Below, piece after piece: positions 3,872 through 48,868 of a DNA stretch of 64,000 nucleotides. The stretch is from Candidatus Hestiella acidicharens. GTDB lineage: Archaea; Thermoproteota; Thermoprotei_A; Sulfolobales; Acidilobaceae. The notes under the pieces were generated by a model. The model saw only the letters and a program-made list of their open reading frames with translations. It did not search any database and was not told the origin of the DNA. The position numbers were made by a program, and so were the translations under genes. The stretch's first letter is position 1; every line of letters begins with the position of its first letter. The DNA lies in assembly GCA_035161305.1 (NCBI GenBank), contig JAALXO010000075.1, positions 1,588 to 65,587 on the forward strand, read 5' to 3'.

Positions 3872-4900
3872 CTAGGGAGAAACGGTAACCCACGTAACTA
3901 TATCTATCTCATATATTGACATACTTGGACTATATTCAATTACCTTTCTTGGCTTTCCTACTTCAAAGCTATAGGGGCACTTTATAGAACCCCTTATCTT
4001 ATTGAGTATGTTGCTATTCTTGCTCTCTAAAACATAAAGAAATATTGTTGATTTTCCTTTCTCTAATAGGTTGCATGCGCTACTTAAGTAATTGATAGAC
4101 ATTGTAGGGTTGTTCATTATTATTTTATTAAATTTATTTGCAATTATCTTATCTAGGCGTGAAGAATCTGCCCTCATAAATGTTACATCTCCTTTAAGGA
4201 TTTTTTTATTAATATGATAGTTACGCTCAGCCAGATATATTGCATATGGGTTTATATCGACTCCTAATATATTAGCTTTTCTTTTTTTTGCTATGTTTAT
4301 CGAAAACCCTCCAATACCTGTAAACATGTCTAAAACGCTGTCGCCATCATCTATAAGATCTGCTATTCTCATGTGCTCCCCTGCAAGCCTTGGATTGAAG
4401 TAGGCCTTGGCTAGGTCAATATAAAACCTAAGGCCATTTTCTTTATGTATTGTTAACCTCTTATCTTCACCTTCTAGTAATATTAACTCAGGTATCCTGA
4501 ACTCTCCTAAGGTCGCAGTTTTTGCATAAACCGCTTTTATCCTTGGATTCATTTCCATAATTTGTCTAGCAGCTTTTTTAAGTAACCCCATATCTTTTTT
4601 GTAGTTAATTATTGCTATATCACCAATTATGAGGTAACTAGAAATTCCTGGGATTACCTCACTTAACCTCTTAAAGCTATACTTGTATTTCTCGAAGCTA
4701 TCCTTACAGATTTCAAAGGTTACCCCACTCTTTTCTAGTAGCCCCCTTGTAAGCTCAACTTGGGAGACCGCAAAGGCTATTTTGTCCTCAATTCTTTTAG
4801 GCTTTAAACCGCTCCTTAACGCATTTCCATTCTTTAGGATATCTAGTACCTTTTTTGCATCTTTTTTGTTTACGCACACGCAGTTGCTTATAACATCCAA
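3872..4900 (-). CDS. trm5: tRNA methyltransferase, Trm5/Taw22 (Met-10+) family
   Basis: IIGDIAII, HKENGLRFYIDLAKAYFNPRLAGEH, VLDMFTGIGGFSI, DINPYA, IIMNNP motifs. Confidence 0.85.
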   Translation of the reverse strand: MDVISNCVCVNKKDAKKVLDILKNGNALRSGLKPKRIEDKIAFAVSQVELTRGLLEKSGVTFEICKDSFEKYKYSFKRLSEVIPGISSYLIIGDIAIINYKKDMGLLKKAARQIMEMNPRIKAVYAKTATLGEFRIPELILLEGEDKRLTIHKENGLRFYIDLAKAYFNPRLAGEHMRIADLIDDGDSVLDMFTGIGGFSINIAKKRKANILGVDINPYAIYLAERNYHINKKILKGDVTFMRADSSRLDKIIANKFNKIIMNNPTMSINYLSSACNLLEKGKSTIFLYVLESKNSNILNKIRGSIKCPYSFEVGKPRKVIEYSPSMSIYEIDIVTWVTVSP

Positions 4901-4962: not shown

Positions 4963-5279
4963 TGCAGGCCAGGATAGCGGTCCACGGGCCCTTGGCCTGA
5001 GGAAACACCGCCCTCTCGGTGGCGACCGGGCCCTGATGGGCTGGGGCAATACCCCAGGCAACGGTACAGAAACGACACGGCCTCCATCAGATGTTGATGA
5101 TGTGGTAAGGCCTCCTTGGTAACAAGGAGGCAGAAAAGCCACGGAAAATGGTGGAGGATGCGATGAAACGACCGACCCCGGTGGAGCAAGGCTGGGGGTG
5201 ATGAAGAGCCACGTAAACCCCCAAAGGCCGCAGAGTCAAATGCCGCAATACAGAAGGCGGGTTATTATCCTGGCCTGCA
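4963..5279 (+). ncRNA. rnpB: RNase P RNA
   Basis: P1 helix TGCAGGCCAGGATA/TATCCTGGCCTGCA; conserved regions GAGGAAAC..CCGCC, ACAGAAAC, TGAAACG, GAGCAAG, ACAGAAGGCGGGTTAT; GC-rich island in AT-rich DNA. Confidence 0.95.
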
Positions 5280-6853: not shown

Positions 6854-8146
6854 CTAGAGGTTTCTATATGTACTCGACCTAAGGTCAAAATAGGAGGCAC
6901 CTTCTATCTCTACTAGCACTCTTCTACCAATAAGACCTTCATCTCCATCTATAGCTACAGGAAAGTAATTCTGCATCCTGCCTACAACATAGGATTTTTT
7001 GAAACCCCTTGAAGTCACTAAGACTTCCTCTTCCCTACCTATATAGGTCCTGTAAATCTTCTCTGCTTCCTCGCGTATTATTTGGTTTAACATTCCACTC
7101 CTCTTCTTCTTTATAGGCTCTGGCACCTGTTGCATTGAAGCTGACCTTGTCCTAGGCCTTATGCTATACTGGGCTAGATACACCCTTTCAAACTTAAGTT
7201 CCCTGAGTAACCTAGCAGTATTATTAAAAGATTCTTCATCCTCGCCAGGATGACCAACAATTATATCTGTTGCAAAAAGCGAACTGGGGAATTTGGCTTT
7301 AATTTTCCTGTGGAGGTTTTTAAATTCCTCTACAGAATAATTCCTATTCATTACCTTCAAAAGGTTCTCATCGCCCGATTGAACTGGTATATGAAAGAAC
7401 TTAAACACCCTATCATCCCTGTATAGCTCTAGAAGGTTATCTATTATTTCCATTGACCTGTTTGGTGTCATCATACCTATCCTTAATCTGTAATCCCCAT
7501 CGACCCTATCTATTATCATAGAAACAAGTTCATCAAGCCTCGTTTTTGGTACGAGGTCAAGCCCATATGCTGCCGTATCCTGTCCTGTAAGCCTTATTTC
7601 TTTTACACCATTTTTCACAAGCTCTTGAATTGTATTCACTATAAGACGAGGCTTATAAGACCTTAAGGTTCTTCTGGCAAGTTTTGTTATACAAAAGCTA
7701 CAATTATCGAGGCATCCTTCTGCTATCATTATCGTTGCAGTACTATCCATGCTAGGGGGAATAAAAATTTTTTCATTGTCCCTCTCTCCGTTAAGCAGTA
7801 TTACCTTCTTGTTAGACTCAACAACCTCTAGTATTTTTGAAACGTTTTGAGGAGAAATAAGGCTGGCATCTGGTAACGTTCTTTCAACAAGCGAAGGTCT
7901 AGCCTTAACAAGACAACCAGACACAACAATTTTGGATCTCGTTGAGTAACCTTTTATCTCCTTCAACCTTTTAATTATTTTGATCTCTGTATCGAGTCTT
8001 ACGGCGCAAGTATTAACGATAATGATTTCTGCCTCATCTATGTTATTTGTCATCCTGTAGCCGTTAGAATTCAAAAGGTAGATCATAGTATTACTATCGA
8101 AACGGGATAATGGGCAACCATACGTTTCAATATAATATTTCTTCAT
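6854..8146 (-). CDS. mtaB: tRNA t6A37 methylthiotransferase (MiaB-like/MtaB radical SAM)
   Basis: UPF0004 N-terminus (ETYGC, VNTCAVR, SGCL), CLDNCSFC radical-SAM motif, C-terminal TRAM domain. Confidence 0.92.
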   Translation of the reverse strand: MKKYYIETYGCPLSRFDSNTMIYLLNSNGYRMTNNIDEAEIIIVNTCAVRLDTEIKIIKRLKEIKGYSTRSKIVVSGCLVKARPSLVERTLPDASLISPQNVSKILEVVESNKKVILLNGERDNEKIFIPPSMDSTATIMIAEGCLDNCSFCITKLARRTLRSYKPRLIVNTIQELVKNGVKEIRLTGQDTAAYGLDLVPKTRLDELVSMIIDRVDGDYRLRIGMMTPNRSMEIIDNLLELYRDDRVFKFFHIPVQSGDENLLKVMNRNYSVEEFKNLHRKIKAKFPSSLFATDIIVGHPGEDEESFNNTARLLRELKFERVYLAQYSIRPRTRSASMQQVPEPIKKKRSGMLNQIIREEAEKIYRTYIGREEEVLVTSRGFKKSYVVGRMQNYFPVAIDGDEGLIGRRVLVEIEGASYFDLRSSTYRNL

Positions 8147-15677: not shown

Positions 15678-15791
15678 AATATAAATAACTGCTATAAAAA
15701 AATATACTGCTATAAAAATATATAGCCAAGTACTCAAATTAAAACAGGTGAAGGGCTCCAATGCCTTAGGACACAATAAGACGGGCCTAGA

Positions 15792-15866
15792 GGACCCGTA
15801 GCTCAGCCAGGATAGAGCGTCGGCCCTCTAAGCCGAATGTCGGGGGTTCAAATCCCCCCGGGTCCG
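15792..15866 (+). tRNA. tRNA-Arg(UCU), position 33 is C
   Basis: Acceptor GGACCCG/CGGGTCC, anticodon arm TCGGC-CCTCTAA-GCCGA, T-arm GGGGG-TTCAAAT-CCCCC. Confidence 0.93.
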
Positions 15867-15957: not shown

Positions 15958-16272
15958 GTGGTTGCCTCTGCATATGATATATTTTCATTATTTTTATAAC
16001 TTTGGTAACCATGCAAAGGCTTTTTCCTCATAAACCTCATCTTTGTTAGCAGTTCATTAAGGGCTACGCTAATGAATATTGCTTGACCTACCATTGCTTG
16101 ATCTACCTTACTAGAAATTAAGCTTGACCTTAAGCCCTTAATGGTAGCCTTACTCTCATTAGCACAAGAAAAGAGAGGTGTTACTATTCCCATTCCTTCT
16201 TCTTATTGGCTTTTCCCGAGCATTTAAAATTCCCTAGCGCTGTCAAATTAAATACTCAAATAAGCAGATAGT
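15958..16272 (-). repeat. Dispersed repeat family B, copy 1 (decayed gene plus upstream region)
   Basis: Reverse complement shares exact ACTATCTGCTTATTTGAGTATT, AATAAGAAGAAGGAAT, CAAAGATGAGGT, ATGGTTACCAAAGTTA with 48576-48868. Confidence 0.9.
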
Positions 16273-16432
16273 CTTTCGCTTGGATCTCGGAGGCAATGAT
16301 TTTTGGTTTTTCAAAATACGTTTTAGGGAATTTTGATTAGAATTAATAAAAACATTAAACAGAATCTACTAAACATGTTATTTTTTAACCTTTTTTTATT
16401 ACTCCCCCTCTTGAACGAGGAGCTGGTGAAAA

Positions 16433-32572: not shown

Positions 32573-32678
32573 TGCCGCCGCCGGGATTCGAACCCGGGAC
32601 CTCCGGATTTCCCAGAGCGCGATTTTCGGTTAAAGGGCCGTATGAGTCCGGCGCTCTAACCTCCTGAGCTACGGCGGC
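32573..32678 (-). tRNA. tRNA-Met(CAU), elongator type, 32-nt intron at 37/38 (32609-32640)
   Basis: GCCGCCGTAGCTCAG...CCGGA-CTCATA[intron]A-TCCGG...GGTTCGAATCC; CUCA/UGGG central BHB helix. Confidence 0.93.
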
Positions 32679-36125: not shown

Positions 36126-36230
36126 GCCGAGGTGGCCGAGCGGTCTAAGGCGGCGGGCTGCAGTATCGAGCAACCTGCCCATCGTTGCCAGAGACCCGTT
36201 ACAACCCGGGTTCGAATCCCGGCCTCGGCT
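36126..36230 (+). tRNA. tRNA-Cys(GCA), 30-nt intron at 37/38 (36164-36193)
   Basis: Acceptor GCCGAGG/CCTCGGC, GCGGG-CTGCAG[intron]A-CCCGT, U73; relaxed BHB. Confidence 0.93.
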
Positions 36231-39918: not shown

Positions 39919-40824
39919 TTGTCTAGGTGGATAGAACTCGTTACCCTTGGAACGGGCGGCGCATTCCCGGGAGAGAGAAGGTTTACCTCATCCCATGTTT
40001 TGAGGGATTGGTTTGGAAACATTATTTTGTTGGATTCCGGTGAAGGCGCCCAGATAAGGTTAAGTAAGGCTTCAATACCCATAACAAGGATTAATGCAAT
40101 ATTGATTACTCATGGGCATGGCGATCATGTAAATGGGTTGCCCGGCCTTCTTCAATCGATGTACTTGAATTCAAGAAAGATATCACTAACAATAGTTGCC
40201 CCAAAAGACGTCATTAATTTTATAGAGAATGCATTAATACTTGAGGGTTCTAACCTAGGCTTTGAGATAAGGCTTTTTGAAATAAAGGGCTCTGGCAGTA
40301 TGCAACTCTTCAATCAAAGGGGGGATAAATTGCTCCTCTATTGGTATGAGACTTGCCATTCGAGGGAGTCCTATGGTTTTGTATTGGAGTGGAACTTAAG
40401 GCCAAGAATAAATAAAGCTAAAATGGAAAGACTAGGCATCAGGTCAGGGCCTCATATAGGGAAAATGCTTCTTAATGGAAATAAAGAAGATTTGCTAGTA
40501 AGGCTTGACCCTTTTAGAATAGCCTATACTGGTGACACTAGGCCGTGTAAGAAAGTAGTCGATGGTATTAAGAAGTCTGATATCTTGTTACATGAGTCTA
40601 CTTTTTCGGAGGAAAATAGGGAGGAGGCTGAGGAGTTTTGCCATAGCACAGGTAAGGGGGCTGCCGAGGAAGCTATAAGCGTTGGCGCTAAGTTGTTAAT
40701 ATTGACTCACGTAAGTTCTAGGTACGAAGGGTATGAAGCCTATGAAATAGAGAGGGAGGCTAGGAAAATTTTTCCAAGGTCTGTCTTAGCTTGGGACTTA
40801 GCCAGGTTCAGGTTTACCATTTAA
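39919..40824 (+). CDS. rnz: Ribonuclease Z
   Basis: LGTGGAFP, LLDSGEGAQ, ITHGHGDHVNGLPG, YTGDTRP, LLHEST, HST, LTHVSSRY. Confidence 0.95.
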   Translation: MSRWIELVTLGTGGAFPGERRFTSSHVLRDWFGNIILLDSGEGAQIRLSKASIPITRINAILITHGHGDHVNGLPGLLQSMYLNSRKISLTIVAPKDVINFIENALILEGSNLGFEIRLFEIKGSGSMQLFNQRGDKLLLYWYETCHSRESYGFVLEWNLRPRINKAKMERLGIRSGPHIGKMLLNGNKEDLLVRLDPFRIAYTGDTRPCKKVVDGIKKSDILLHESTFSEENREEAEEFCHSTGKGAAEEAISVGAKLLILTHVSSRYEGYEAYEIEREARKIFPRSVLAWDLARFRFTI

Positions 40825-42959: not shown

Positions 42960-43952
42960 ATGAAAGCATTTAAAACTTTAGATGAAAAGGTGTTTGGATA
43001 TAAGGTTTCGGAGGAGGCCCTAAGTCTGTCGAGAAGGTTTGGATATGCTAGCTACATAGTCGAGAGATATTTAAGGCTCTTGGGCATGGAAGAGACGGAG
43101 GAGCTGCTAAAGGTAAATGAGAGACCTATGCCAAAAAGCTATAGGTGCAACGATTTTTTAATAGCTTGTGATGAAGTGGAGAAGAGGCTAAAGGAAAAGG
43201 AGTTCTTGGTAAGCAAGATCCCCTTTCTTCCCCACGGATATGAGGTCGTCTTCTCTCCCTATAGCCTTGGCGCGACCCATGAATATATGATGGGATATTA
43301 CTACATACAGGATCCAGGTTCAATGCTAGTAGCATACCTCTTAGATCCAAGGAAATATACCACAATAGTTGATATGGCAGCTGCGCCAGGCGGAAAGGCA
43401 ACCCAGATACTGCAATTAACGGAGGACTCCTCTAGGTTGATAGCAGTTGAATATAAGAGGAAGAGAATAAAGGCTTTGAGGTCAAACTTACAGAGAATGG
43501 GCTTTTCAAATTACTTAATCTTAAGGCATGATGCCAGAAAACTCAAAATAAAGGAGGCTGATAAGATCTTGCTAGACTCACCTTCATCAGGTGAGGGGAT
43601 AATTAGGAAGGATCCAGGTAGGAAGGCAAGGTATACTAGGGATGACCTAAAGAAAATACATACAATTCAATATGAACTCCTAAACAAGGCGTTCGACTTG
43701 GTAAAGAAAGGCGGTGAGGTCTTGTATGCTGCATGCTCAACAGCTATAGAGGAAGGCGAATACGTAATACACAAGGTTTTAGAGAGAAGGAAGGACGTCG
43801 AGGTGTTGCATGTCACTTCGCCTATTGGAGATAAGGCTTTTGTGGAGTATAACGGGGTTGAGTTTAATGTGGAGGTGTCTAAGTGCATAAGGCTCTGGCC
43901 ACACAAGCACTGGACCGAGGGGTTTTTCATATGCAAGATGAGGAGAATTTAG
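42960..43952 (+). CDS. RsmB/NOP2-family RNA m5C methyltransferase
   Basis: GYYYIQDPGSML, DMAAAPGGKATQ, LLDSPSSGEG, YAACS..IEEGE, LWPH.H.TEGFF; the usual motif IV Cys (DAPC) reads DSPS. Confidence 0.9.
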   Translation: MKAFKTLDEKVFGYKVSEEALSLSRRFGYASYIVERYLRLLGMEETEELLKVNERPMPKSYRCNDFLIACDEVEKRLKEKEFLVSKIPFLPHGYEVVFSPYSLGATHEYMMGYYYIQDPGSMLVAYLLDPRKYTTIVDMAAAPGGKATQILQLTEDSSRLIAVEYKRKRIKALRSNLQRMGFSNYLILRHDARKLKIKEADKILLDSPSSGEGIIRKDPGRKARYTRDDLKKIHTIQYELLNKAFDLVKKGGEVLYAACSTAIEEGEYVIHKVLERRKDVEVLHVTSPIGDKAFVEYNGVEFNVEVSKCIRLWPHKHWTEGFFICKMRRI

Positions 43953-45297: not shown

Positions 45298-46023
45298 ATT
45301 GCAGAACTGAGGTCCAAGATTGTTGCAACAGCCGATATACATTCGCCAAGGTATATTCAGCTGTTTAAGGAATCAATGGAAAGGTTAAACCTTAAGGAAG
45401 AACCCTGCGTTTTTCTCTTAGCTGGTGATATAATAGATAGAGGAGAAAAAGAACAGGCTGGTCTTGTTTTTAATATCATTAATAAAAAGTTCCCGGATAT
45501 AAAGATAATAGCGGTCTTTGGTAACGAAGAATACTCAGAGATATGGGAGGAGCTTAGGGAAACATATCCTGAAGTAACCTGGCTTTCTGATGAATGCACA
45601 GCAATAGATTGTGGCGGTAGGATTGCAATAGTAGGTACTACTGGTGCCTTGGAAAGGCCTACTAGGTGGCAGGCGTTGCACATAAAAAACATTAAAGAAG
45701 TATACGAGAAAAGAATCTCTAATGTAGAGGTATTGCTAAGGGAGGCCAGAAAGAAGGCCAGCAAAGTGATTCTCCTTTCTCATTATGGTCTCTCTAAGGT
45801 TACCTTAAGGGGGGAAAGACCCTCTGCCTATAACTGGCTCTATAGCTCTAGAATGGAGCAGGTTATTGTAAAGCTTAGGCCTGACGTTGCAATCCATGGC
45901 CATGCACATAATGGGACAAAGTTTGCTTTCCTTAAAGGAATACCTATATATAACGTTGCGTTACCGCTAAATAAAGAAATAGTTGTGATACATTTTAAAA
46001 CAATTTTCGATTACTTTAGATGA
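45298..46023 (+). CDS. Metallophosphoesterase (start uncertain; track start 45376 omits motif I)
   Basis: TADIH upstream of ATG, LAGD, VFGNEE, LSHY, HGHAH motifs. Confidence 0.85.
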   Translation: MAELRSKIVATADIHSPRYIQLFKESMERLNLKEEPCVFLLAGDIIDRGEKEQAGLVFNIINKKFPDIKIIAVFGNEEYSEIWEELRETYPEVTWLSDECTAIDCGGRIAIVGTTGALERPTRWQALHIKNIKEVYEKRISNVEVLLREARKKASKVILLSHYGLSKVTLRGERPSAYNWLYSSRMEQVIVKLRPDVAIHGHAHNGTKFAFLKGIPIYNVALPLNKEIVVIHFKTIFDYFR

Positions 46024-46067
46024 TTATCATTTAGGTAGAAACATTTTAAAACAATTTTCGATTACTT
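45990..46067 (+). repeat. 27-bp perfect direct repeat (45990-46016, 46041-46067) with 24-bp spacer
   Basis: ACATTTTAAAACAATTTTCGATTACTT twice. Confidence 0.95.
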
Positions 46068-46077
46068 ATTTGGGGGA

Positions 46078-46152
46078 GCCGCGGTAGTATAGCCCGGCCC
46101 AGTATGCGGGCCCTTCGAGCCCGTGACCCGGGTTCAAATCCCGGCCGCGGCA
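46078..46152 (+). tRNA. tRNA-Glu(UUC), position 33 is C
   Basis: Acceptor GCCGCGG/CCGCGGC, anticodon arm CGGGC-CCTTCGA-GCCCG, T-arm CCGGG-TTCAAAT-CCCGG. Confidence 0.93.
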
Positions 46153-46248: not shown

Positions 46249-46881
46249 TTGGTGAGTAAAATGGCAATACTCTGCTTGCTAAGACATGGAGAGTCCTTGT
46301 GGAACAAGGAAAACAGGTTCACTGGTTGGGTTGACGTGCCCCTAACAGAGAAGGGTAGGCAAGAGGCAATAAGGGCCGGTTTCCTTTTAAAGGACTACAA
46401 GTTCGATGTAGCATACACTAGTGTTTTGCAAAGGGCTATAGAAACGCTTGACTTAGTATTGATGGTCCTTGGATATAAAATACCAGTAATAAAGGATTGG
46501 AGGCTGAATGAAAGGAACTATGGAGACCTACAGGGCTTGAACAAGGCCGAAACCGCAAGGAAATATGGCGACGAGCAAGTAAGAATATGGAGGAGGAGCT
46601 ATAGGGTGAAGCCCCCAAATGGGGAGAGCCTTGAAGATACTCAAAAGAGAACTATTCCCTTCTTCAAGAACGCCATAGCAATGGACTTGAAATACCAGAA
46701 AAATGTCTTAGTAGTTGCGCATGGCAACAGCCTTAGGTCGATAGTTATGTACATCGAGAACATTCCAGAAGACGTTATACCGAAAGTGGAGATACCTACC
46801 GGACAACCTATAATTTATGAAACCGAATGGGATTCCAGCAAGGATGAACTTTCGATAAAGTCTAAGAAGGTCCTTCAGTAG
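46249..46881 (+). CDS. gpmA: 2,3-bisphosphoglycerate-dependent phosphoglycerate mutase
   Basis: [61 protein letters not shown]. Confidence 0.93.
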
Positions 46882-47297: not shown

Positions 47298-48329
47298 TTA
47301 GGGTTTTTTAGCTACTACTATTTCCCTATTTAGGCTGGAATGAACGTACATAGCATAATGCTTAACAAGCTTGAAGCCTTTATCCAACGCAAATGAGTGA
47401 GGCTTTTTTTCATAAGGCCCAGCGTAAACTATATATGAACCTCTCTTCAATACTCTCATTGCTTCCTCCAAAAACTTAGAAATGATAAAATCATATCCCA
47501 TCTTCCTTGTGCTTGAAGCCCTTCCGTAAGGGGGATCAGTGGCTATTGCATCAACGCTTTCATCTGCTATAGGGAGCCTTGAGGCATCATGCCTTGCTAC
47601 GCAAAATGAGCTACATTCATTTAGGGCAAGGAAGTTCGTCTTTGAGCCAAGGGTCATTTCTTCACTGATATCCATGCAGAGGGGTCTCGCTATACCAAGC
47701 AAGCAGGCCTCTAATACTATGCCTCCAGTACCGCAGAATGGATCTAGAAGAGTAGAGTCCTTTCTAGCCCTAGACAAGTTTAGAAACAACCTTGACAGGT
47801 ACTGGTCTATTTGCCCTGACCTATTGAAAGGTTTCTTTATATTAGAGAAGGTGCCTTTCTTTTTAGATAGTAGAAGGCCAAATATTGCAACACCTTCAGT
47901 AATTATTACCCTAACAAGGTTTTTCGATTTTGTGGTAGCATTTATACCTATTTTCTCTATTTCCCTCGCCAACGATATTTCTATTTTGCTTAGGCTTAGC
48001 GAAGAGGAGTGACCCTTAAACTTAATTGCATCGACCCTTGCATCCTTTAATCTAAGTACCTTAAGTTTTTGGGCTACTTCAGTGAAGTTAATGTTTTCTA
48101 CGCTATAATAGGCGATGAGCCTTCCAACCTCCTTTACATAAGCAGCTCTTTCCGTTATCCTTTCAGGATCGATCTTGCCACGTATTAGAGAAACTCCATC
48201 GAACCTATATATAAAATTCCATTCGTAATTGTTTGCTTCTAGTATGGCCTCAAGCTCATCGTTAGGAAGCGTTGGATGGAAGCCAGAGAGCAATGCGTAG
48301 TATTCTGTTTGTTCCTTGCCCAAATCCAT
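47298..48329 (-). CDS. tRNA m2G10 methyltransferase (TrmG10/Trm11, THUMP + MTase)
   Basis: LSGFHPTLP..E, LLDPFCGTGGIVLEA, VDAIATDPPYGR, YVHSSLNREI. Confidence 0.88.
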   Translation of the reverse strand: MDLGKEQTEYYALLSGFHPTLPNDELEAILEANNYEWNFIYRFDGVSLIRGKIDPERITERAAYVKEVGRLIAYYSVENINFTEVAQKLKVLRLKDARVDAIKFKGHSSSLSLSKIEISLAREIEKIGINATTKSKNLVRVIITEGVAIFGLLLSKKKGTFSNIKKPFNRSGQIDQYLSRLFLNLSRARKDSTLLDPFCGTGGIVLEACLLGIARPLCMDISEEMTLGSKTNFLALNECSSFCVARHDASRLPIADESVDAIATDPPYGRASSTRKMGYDFIISKFLEEAMRVLKRGSYIVYAGPYEKKPHSFALDKGFKLVKHYAMYVHSSLNREIVVAKKP

Positions 48330-48391: not shown

Positions 48392-48488
48392 GCCGCCGTA
48401 GCTCAGACCGGTAGAACCCTGCGTGGGTACCGAAAGCGCTGGCCTTGTAAGCCAGTGGTCGCGGGTTCGAATCCCGCCGGCGGCTCCA
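48392..48488 (+). tRNA. tRNA-Thr(UGU) with 20-nt non-canonical D-arm intron at 22/23 (48415-48434), encoded CCA
   Basis: CTGGC-CTTGTAA-GCCAG; BHB: AGA bulge, CGGU/ACCG helix, AAA bulge, ACCC/GGGU intron stem. Confidence 0.93.
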
Positions 48489-48575
48489 ATTCATATAAGG
48501 TTTCCTTATTGATAACTAAGCTGATTACCTAGCTCTTCGGACTGGTTCAGTTTACTATGGAAGCCTCAAGGAAAT

Positions 48576-48868
48576 ACTATCTGCTTATTTGAGTATTCAA
48601 TTTGACAACTAGGGAAGCATTTAAATGCTTGGGAAAAGTCTGTTAATAAGAAGAAGGAATTGTAATACCTCTCTTCTCCTGCACCGATGAGAATAAGGTT
48701 ACCATCAAGGACTTGAGGTTATGCTTAACTTCCCGTAAGGCGGGTTAAGTGGTACCTGTCGATGTAGCTTTCGATGAACCACCGACAAAGATGAGGTGGA
48801 TGAGGGAGGACCTGTGTATGGTTACCAAAGTTACCAAAATAACGAAAATACCATACACAGGCAACCAC
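48576..48868 (+). repeat. Dispersed repeat family B, copy 2
   Basis: Collinear homology to the reverse complement of 15958-16272, including a 22-nt exact block. Confidence 0.9.

Follow-up and report, generated by a model that had tools for sequence, protein, structure and literature searches.

We analyzed a 64,000-nt stretch of Candidatus Hestiella acidicharens DNA (contig JAALXO010000075.1, forward strand; hereafter the window) and focused on a tRNA-Glu(UUC) gene that carries a cytosine at position 33, where almost all tRNAs have a uridine. U33 is among the most conserved nucleotides in biology and forms the U-turn that presents the anticodon. Hestiella is placed in the Acidilobaceae (NCBI); the window has a G+C content of 39.8%, and its sequence occurs in hydrothermal-vent metagenomes. 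The genes and features at the locus are as follows.

45376-46023, + strand: metallophosphoesterase gene, the upstream anchor of the synteny FKBP - Metallophos - tRNA-Glu held in common with Caldisphaera
45990-46016, + strand: copy 1 of a perfect 27-bp direct repeat, ACATTTTAAAACAATTTTCGATTACTT, overlapping the 3' end of the metallophosphoesterase open reading frame (ORF)
46041-46067, + strand: copy 2 of the 27-bp direct repeat, containing the TATA-like box of the tRNA-Glu gene
46044-46051, + strand: TATA-like box TTTTAAAA, -34 to -27 from the mature 5' end; putative archaeal-type promoter
46078-46152, + strand: tRNA-Glu(UUC) gene, 75 nt, discriminator A73, CCA not encoded (ARAGORN, Rfam RF00005)
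46113, + strand: C at tRNA position 33, by comparison the derived state for the genus Hestiella
46114-46116, + strand: anticodon TTC (U34 U35 C36), reading GAA (ARAGORN, Rfam model)
46261-46881, + strand: His_Phos_1 (phosphoglycerate-mutase-like) gene, the downstream neighbor within Hestiella only

The tRNA-Glu(UUC) gene and its cytosine at position 33

The Rfam tRNA model calls the gene at 46078-46152/3(+) with 56.7 bits against a gathering score of 29, and ARAGORN assigns the same interval to tRNA-Glu(ttc). The acceptor stem, GCCGCGG/CCGCGGC, is followed by U8 and A9; the D stem (GUAU/GUAU) has two Watson-Crick pairs (U-A and A-U) and two G.U pairs, with a D loop of 11 nt; and the body is completed by G26, the anticodon stem CGGGC/GCCCG, a 4-nt variable region, and the T arm CCGGG-UUCAAAU-CCCGG. 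The anticodon loop reads C32-C33-U34-U35-C36-G37-A38. It lacks the canonical U33 and is otherwise as expected, i.e., 7 nt long with a purine, G, at position 37. All 21 of 21 stem pairs are intact, and none of the marks of a pseudogene (broken stems or a low score, loss of the promoter, drift) was found. ARAGORN, the Rfam model, and the sequence itself agree with the coordinates, loop sequence, anticodon, and TATA-like box given in the original prediction, which had also called the tRNA otherwise perfectly paired; this holds in that every stem is intact and needs amending for the D stem, where two of the pairs are G.U. We discounted a scan for sigma-70 promoters and terminators, as it is not meaningful for an archaeon. 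The 27-bp repeat occurs in both Hestiella species (including L023), and Caldisphaera has one related copy.

A shifted reading of the loop, with a UCA anticodon and the U at '34' acting as U33, was rejected because the shifted stem is unpaired. We likewise rejected an origin of the C in an integrated element that exchanged the tRNA's 3' half: the flanks are housekeeping genes, and the upstream side is syntenic with Caldisphaera. In nearest-neighbor folding of the anticodon stem-loop, a form closed by a C33-G37 pair lies 0.7 kcal/mol above the canonical loop at 37 C, compared with 2.1 kcal/mol for U33, and it is not favored at 80 C. These calculations at 37 C and 80 C gave no clear misfolding signal for C33 anticodon stem-loops.

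Judged from the assemblies, the C at 46113 is a real inherited change and no error. Two ENA assemblies made in separate analyses carry it (ERZ23491061 and ERZ27262636; their loci, L001 and L002, are 99.9% and 100% identical to the window), as does the NCBI metagenome-assembled genome (MAG) GCA_035594205.1 (L458). A 29.9-kb Logan contig from sequencing run X1 spans 46113 without mismatch. The congener Candidatus Hestiella sp. S016_56 (L023) has an identical tRNA-Glu within syntenic flanks that are ~93% identical. The gene is thus identical in five assemblies from two species (L001, L002, L023, L457, and L458), that is, C33 is encoded in DNA and conserved among relatives, as in natural C33 tRNAs. 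The argument made earlier that random error is unlikely is upheld by this recurrence of the C in independent assemblies and in a second species. In two further runs, X2 and X3, every Logan contig that covers 46113 has T there, as would be seen if the C had arisen in sequencing or assembly or belonged to a rare strain. These contigs stand at 10-30x the depth of the Hestiella contigs, which break at 46107 in a graph tangle with the tRNA-Glu genes of other organisms. Such tangling is expected, because other Thermoprotei carry an identical tRNA-Glu with T33. The T contigs are most likely tRNA-Glu genes of co-occurring Thermoprotei and uninformative on Hestiella, and we rejected them as evidence for T in this genus, since they are high-depth contigs of other organisms. 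With the C in five independent assemblies, one of them from a different species, we regard an artefact or rare variant as exceedingly improbable.

Ancestry and probable use of the gene

The closest protein relatives outside the genus belong to Caldisphaera, with 52-59% identity for the adjacent metallophosphoesterase and 89% for EF-2. A Caldisphaera-type locus of 31% G+C (L157) shares the gene order of the window, with 67% (FKBP) and 53% (Metallophos) aa identity, and has T33. A Caldisphaera sp. MAG (L443), reached via its metallophosphoesterase homolog (59%), likewise shares the gene order and has T33; a AAACATTTTAAAACA box lies upstream of this T33 ortholog, in a position comparable to that in Hestiella. 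Both tRNA-Glu genes are identical to the window gene at 74 of 75 positions, T33 being the difference, and we treat them as orthologs. We also scanned JGI metagenomes with the anticodon stem, T arm, and 3' acceptor strand of tRNA-Glu fixed and with C or T allowed at position 33; counts from pattern scans over sequence collections, here and below, are samples, not censuses. At least 119 stretches were returned, with T33 in 119/119 among the matches listed, and at least four of those listed, L157 among them, match the window tRNA-Glu at all 74 other positions. T33 in the syntenic Caldisphaera loci and in all 119 listed metagenome orthologs implies that C33 is derived. By this comparison, C33 arose through one substitution on the Hestiella branch, and the tRNA-Glu is otherwise frozen across Thermoprotei of 31 to 62% G+C.

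Between the two Hestiella species, tRNA-Glu has 0/75 changes, compared with 6/150 in the non-coding flanks and a divergence of 6.5-10% in neighboring genes. Under neutrality, the probability of seeing no change in tRNA-Glu is ~0.05 to 0.006, and the pattern of substitution indicates that the gene is under purifying selection. Across 49 long ORFs of the window, 598 of the 1019 Glu codons are GAA, a share of 59%, and GAA accounts for ~3.9% of all codons. Its share of 0.59 lies in line with the 0.47-0.61 of other A-ending codons of two-codon sets, without depletion, and codon usage therefore gives no sign of a crippled decoder. A U34 tRNA-Glu is required, because by standard wobble rules a C34 tRNA is unable to read GAA. 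In run X1, a contig at 21x, the genome's own depth, has T at 46113 and also C at 46114, which makes it a CUC isoacceptor with a normal U33. Sequences with both T33 and T34 total only ~1.8x versus ~20x for the genome, by arithmetic on the depth table. From these depths, a second U33 tRNA-Glu(UUC) gene in Hestiella is unlikely, and the C33 tRNA-Glu(UUC) is probably the sole decoder of GAA. A function for the gene is very likely, as it is a positional ortholog, has kept its TATA-like box, and has stayed unaltered since the two species diverged.

According to a different account, the C33 gene is a disabled or decaying copy, and a U33 tRNA-Glu(UUC) elsewhere in the genome does the work. Our view of the genome is limited to the ~80 kb that were read (the window, which is ~4% of a genome, plus flanks), and this leaves the account some room. 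Against it, the gene is the positional ortholog of the canonical Caldisphaera gene, it has a good tRNA score with intact stems and a conserved promoter box, and it shows no substitution between species whose flanks differ by 4-10%; moreover, tRNA-Glu sequences with T33 and T34 (at least 85% similarity) reach at most ~1.8x in X1 versus ~20x for the genome. We consider a decaying copy highly improbable. The original prediction had discounted independent decay, and the unchanged tRNA body between diverged flanks, at the position of a T33 ortholog, supports that judgment. It had also named a separate, expressed U33 tRNA-Glu(UUC) gene as the finding that would overturn it: no copy at comparable depth appears in X1 or in the ~80 kb, and one could lie elsewhere.

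C33 in other tRNAs

By the Rfam models, the window encodes an archaeal RNase P RNA and six tRNAs. One of the other tRNAs has C33 as well:

15792-15866, + strand: companion C33 tRNA-Arg(UCU), loop CCUCUAA, C33 at 15826, 30.3 kb from tRNA-Glu

The remaining four of six tRNAs, Thr(UGU) at 48392, Asn(GUU), Met(CAU), and Cys(GCA), keep U33. Two expectations of the original prediction, a second C33 tRNA, Arg(UCU), ~30 kb away and a tRNA-Thr(UGU) that retains U33 (Rfam model), are thereby borne out. The tRNA-Arg(UCU) gene is identical in another Hestiella lineage (L449, 94.5% identical) and has one difference in Acidilobaceae UBA158 (L063), which also has C33. In an EF-2 synteny search, no tRNA-Arg(UCU) adjoined EF-2 in Caldisphaera lagunensis, Acidilobus saccharovorans, or Hestiella S016_56, and from these comparisons the age of the Arg C33 change appears traceable only to Hestiella and UBA158. 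No further tRNA was found in ~16 kb of extra flanking sequence taken from other assemblies. That Glu and Arg(UCU) both have C33 speaks for a loosened constraint on U33 across the lineage, confined to a few tRNAs, rather than for two separate accidents.

We scanned GTDB species genomes with the pattern GGC-C32-C33-NNN-R37-A38-GCC followed by the T loop, a pattern that itself biases which C33 tRNAs are visible, and obtained at least 119 loci (L004-L122 inclusive). ARAGORN, run on 60 archaeal matches, called most of them tRNAs with the expected anticodon. The archaeal matches listed (n = 68) comprise Gly(CCC) (25), Arg(UCU) (12), Gly(UCC) (12), Gln(UUG) (6), Gln(CUG) (5), Arg(CCG) (3), Glu(UUC) (2), Arg(CCU) (2), and one spurious match. 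These matches come from Desulfurococcales, Acidilobaceae, Thermoproteales, Nitrososphaeria, Bathyarchaeia, Asgard, DPANN, and several euryarchaeal groups. Within the Acidilobaceae, C33 occurs in Glu(UUC) of Hestiella, in Arg(UCU) of Hestiella lineages and UBA158, and in Gly(UCC) of Acidilobus sp. RSNS4 (L115). Archaeal C33 tRNA-Glu(UUC) was seen, among the matches listed, in Hestiella and one Micrarchaeota MAG only. Going by these counts, archaeal C33 may be more frequent than one would gather from the literature searched, where only Sulfolobales tRNA-Cys appears, and it appears to be concentrated in a few tRNAs (Gly, Arg-UCU, Gln, and Glu). All real archaeal C33 matches listed have a pyrimidine at position 35; in a T33 control of the same context, 3 of 10 non-selected tRNAs have a purine there. 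The apparent restriction of archaeal C33 to pyrimidine-35 anticodons is a lead, not a result. The original prediction had proposed a specificity for split-box U34 tRNAs. This rule rests on two tRNAs here and does not hold as a general statement, as the listed archaeal C33 tRNAs are mostly family-box Gly(CCC) and Gly(UCC), and the C34 species Gln(CUG), Arg(CCG), and Arg(CCU) have C33 as well.

Among the bacterial genome matches listed, 23/50 are C33 tRNA-Glu(UUC). Viral contigs gave 22 C33 to 60 T33 in the Glu(UUC) stem context and 1 to 119 in that of Arg(UCU), among the matches listed. In several bacterial loci (L011, L038, L067, and L101, from Planctomycetes, Actinomycetota, and Acidobacteriota MAGs), many neighboring tRNAs of differing specificity all have C33, a Pirellulales contig has five further C33 tRNAs beside its C33 tRNA-Glu, and phage tRNA arrays (viral contigs L400, L416, L437, and L440) likewise have many adjoining C33 tRNAs. 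C33 was found in 44/980 non-selected tRNAs of viral loci. The archaeal neighbors of C33 tRNAs are almost all U33, the exception being one C33 tRNA-Gly(CCC) in L173; other apparent non-U archaeal neighbor calls look like ARAGORN misreads of intron-bearing genes. A MAG labeled Spirochaetes (L065) and Ca. Asgardarchaeum abyssi (L031) share an archaeal-type C33 tRNA-Gly(CCC) together with downstream sequence, and the contig binned as Spirochaetes is, from this likeness, probably archaeal.

Three of the six window tRNAs are intron-bearing (48392-48488, 36126-36230, and 32573-32678). Thr(UGU) has a ~22-nt insertion in the D-loop region, and ARAGORN miscalled its anticodon as ggt; Cys(GCA), with a ~30-nt insertion after position 35/37, and Met(CAU), with a ~32-nt insertion, were both missed entirely by ARAGORN. 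The tRNA-Arg(UCU) leader (window 15740-15791) has ~45 conserved nt, gaagggctccaatgccttaggacacaataagacgggcctaga, between an A/T-rich box and the mature 5' end; it is unusually long and conserved (L449) and recognizably similar in Acidilobaceae UBA158 (L063). Two paralogous non-coding elements of ~320 nt, mutually 73% identical, lie at 15958-16282 (+) and, in reverse orientation, at 48567-48868, each 80-90 nt downstream of a tRNA gene (Arg-UCU and Thr-UGU, respectively). They are conserved in other Hestiella lineages (L449:1929-2224 and L023:1947-2247) and had no Rfam match at E<=1. RNAalifold predicted 65 pairs from four copies, 11 of them with compensatory changes, and the elements may form an unannotated structured RNA family.

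Tolerance, modification, or editing of C33

We favor the view, which we hold to be reasonably probable, that Hestiella tRNA-Glu(UUC) is a single-copy, functional gene with a lineage-specific, fixed U33-to-C33 change and that its product is a natural, tolerated C33 elongator tRNA. In the sequence, the gene lies at the ancestral FKBP - metallophosphoesterase - tRNA-Glu locus behind a conserved TATA-like box. From there it would be transcribed, trimmed, and CCA-tailed; the same window encodes two putative maturation factors:

4966-5276: RNase P RNA
39919-40824, + strand: RNase Z-like metallo-beta-lactamase gene

The mature tRNA would most likely retain C33 and decode GAA on the ribosome. C33 would lack the N3-H hydrogen bond of the classical U-turn unless protonated, and such a lack can be tolerated in experiments elsewhere; by analogy with the C33 of yeast tRNA-Leu(GAG), it may be a tolerated, nearly neutral departure from the U-turn consensus.

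Natural tRNAs without U33 are known from several systems. In yeast tRNA-Leu(GAG), tL(GAG), the natural C33 and a C33U mutant show minimal functional difference (PMC13492127). Like Hestiella tRNA-Glu, tL(GAG) is a single-copy elongator tRNA encoded with C33, and it is expressed and used unedited. It differs in being eukaryotic, in having G34, and in being non-essential, since tRNA-Leu(UAG) also reads CUC, whereas Hestiella tRNA-Glu is probably the sole decoder of an abundant codon, GAA. In the Sulfolobales, tRNA-Cys(GCA) has C33 clade-wide, as noted from genome sequences (PMC7668247). This is likewise a crenarchaeal elongator of thermoacidophilic Thermoprotei, but it is another tRNA, known from genes alone, and the tRNA-Cys(GCA) of Hestiella has U33. 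The cytoplasmic initiator tRNA-Met of multicellular eukaryotes has a conserved C33 (PMC9023262, PMC8887486), which alters its acceptance by enzymes: yeast KEOPS is blocked and human KEOPS is not (PMC8887486, PMC9023262). This tRNA enters the P site directly, and its position 33 evolved together with the t6A machinery; Hestiella tRNA-Glu is an A-site elongator. The tRNA-Ser(CAG) of the Candida CTG clade is also a natural non-U33 elongator, whose G33 alters anticodon-arm structure and decoding efficiency (as cited in PMC13492127 and PMC5041475). It has G instead of C and is tied to codon reassignment, of which there is no sign in Hestiella.

According to recent enzymology, U33 is recognized by Elongator/Elp3, by archaeal TrmJ, and by some of the t6A machineries. 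The U33C change abolishes the activity of SaTrmJ from S. acidocaldarius (PMC4105751) and acetyl-CoA hydrolysis by Elongator (PMC11096365), and C33 blocks yeast KEOPS and E. coli TsaBCDE (PMC8887486). Judging from these orthologous enzymes, C33 would be an anti-determinant for archaeal TrmJ (Cm32) and Elp3/Elongator (xm5U34) and, in tRNA-Arg(UCU), should also block a t6A37 machinery of the yeast or bacterial type. With C33 expected to block U33-requiring enzymes, both tRNAs may be modified differently from their U33 relatives. One could go further and suppose that an unedited C33 is adaptive, i.e., that it serves on both U34 tRNAs as a built-in anti-determinant against xm5U34 by Elp3, Cm32 by TrmJ, and t6A37 by KEOPS, and would adjust how wobble pairing reads GAA/GAG and AGA/AGG when there is a separate C34 isoacceptor. 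The yeast counterparts of tRNA-Glu(UUC) and tRNA-Arg(UCU) are Elongator substrates. That U33C blocks three anticodon-loop enzyme systems in vitro, that both C33 tRNAs of the window are split-box U34 members, and that the CUC isoacceptor inferred in X1 keeps U33 all favor this idea. AGA is also specifically under-used in Hestiella, at 28-31% of AGR versus 44-61% for other A-ending pairs (window ORFs, L023, and L445), with no such dip in Caldisphaera-like loci (66% versus 65-76%; L443, L446, L157, and L237). The C33 tRNA-Arg(UCU) may be connected with this under-use; another possible cause is codon bias, as thermophiles are known to prefer AGG. The case for adaptation rests on two tRNAs and meets an unshifted GAA usage, and archaeal C33 is, among the matches listed, commonest in tRNA-Gly(CCC) and found in other C34 tRNAs, which are no wobble-uridine substrates. 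We consider it unlikely.

A further possibility, implied in the original prediction, is that a tRNA cytidine deaminase turns C33 back into U33 once the tRNA has been transcribed, giving a working tRNA with a normal U-turn. To our knowledge, the position-8 system of Methanopyrus kandleri is the one archaeal C-to-U tRNA editing system known. There, CDAT8 converts C8 to U8 in 30 tRNAs (PMC3695527), and M. kandleri, a hyperthermophile, and Hestiella are both archaea whose tRNA genes have C where U is structurally required, as seen here in the genomic C at positions 46113 and 15826. In favor of editing, U33 matters structurally and is almost universal, C33 occurs in two unlinked tRNAs, and normal GAA usage would be expected just as well if U33 were fully restored. 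CDAT8 differs in acting at position 8 and not 33, on 30 tRNA species versus two of six here, through a known deaminase-THUMP enzyme and with RNA that demonstrably has U. As an RNA proxy, we used a Nitrososphaerales tRNA-Arg(UCU) (locus L004), whose loop, C32-C33-U34-C35-U36, is that of the window tRNA-Arg. Four metatranscriptome runs have a contig that is 100% identical across its anticodon arm and keeps C33, at depths up to 211x, and no T variant at position 33 was found among the contigs of these four runs; a C33 tRNA-Arg(UCU) of another archaeon thus reads C in RNA-derived contigs, which counts weakly against editing. The contig (L004:2150-2276 in runs X9-X12) shares a G>A at 2191 and a leader of at least 57 nt throughout; the runs are labeled hypersaline lake, microbial mat, and hot springs, the 211x depth comes from a 35-Mb run, and the contig may stem from an organism, or a contaminant, common to these runs. 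Among the genes examined in or beside the window (a subset of ORFs, ~80 kb), we found no nucleic-acid deaminase, only a dCTP deaminase, which counts weakly against editing, as the window is ~4% of a genome. The examined genes are housekeeping genes: a complex I operon, an ABC transporter, EF-2, ProRS, the dCTP deaminase, and tRNA-maturation methyltransferases. The window is rich in tRNA-maturation genes, all housekeeping and with no deaminase among them, at the following positions:

3872-4900, - strand
6854-8146, - strand
39919-40824, + strand (the RNase Z-like gene above)
42960-43952, + strand
47298-48329, - strand

They include a Trm5/Taw2-like gene, an MtaB-like radical-SAM methylthiotransferase, an NSUN/RsmB-type m5C methyltransferase, and a THUMP methyltransferase (UPF0020). 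If editing accounted for the sporadic C33 seen in single tRNAs across numerous unrelated archaeal lineages, a large number of separate editing systems would be needed; such a distribution seems to fit tolerance better than dedicated editing, and natural C33 tRNAs work unedited in yeast (PMC13492127). By these analogies, editing appears less likely than simple tolerance. We judge restoration of U33 in the manner of CDAT8 to be quite unlikely, and it is very unlikely that Hestiella, and perhaps other C33 archaea, convert C33 to U33 by an undescribed anticodon-loop cytidine deaminase. If it existed, such a deaminase would give the archaea a tRNA C-to-U system beyond CDAT8, the second of its kind and directed at selected tRNAs; none of the present results points to editing.

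Several points weigh against a tolerated, unedited C33. U33C is damaging in several experimental tRNAs, e.g., sup4-U33C (PMC11096365). Human KEOPS tolerates C33, and the enzyme support comes from orthologs and not from the Elp3, TrmJ, or KEOPS of Hestiella. No public RNA run for Hestiella came up when the tRNA region or the RNase P RNA was used as query. The L004 contigs are from a distant lineage that differs at phylum level and from a different tRNA, and their 5' leader of at least 57 nt means that they are precursors or possibly DNA. Finally, a second tRNA-Glu(UUC) could lie outside the ~80 kb that were read, and Logan contigs can drop variants.

On the reading that we favor, an archaeal, probably essential tRNA-Glu, and with it a tRNA-Arg, join the small known set of natural C33 tRNAs. 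Hestiella would have an apparently essential elongator tRNA with a fixed C33 as the probable sole reader of GAA, ~4% of its codons. The wider archaeal pattern of C33 could become a rule on which anticodons tolerate the loss of U33. Because the sister genus Caldisphaera has a U33 tRNA that is otherwise identical, the two form a one-nucleotide natural pair for the role of U33 at high temperature, which would address the contribution of this nucleotide to decoding and to anticodon-loop modification.

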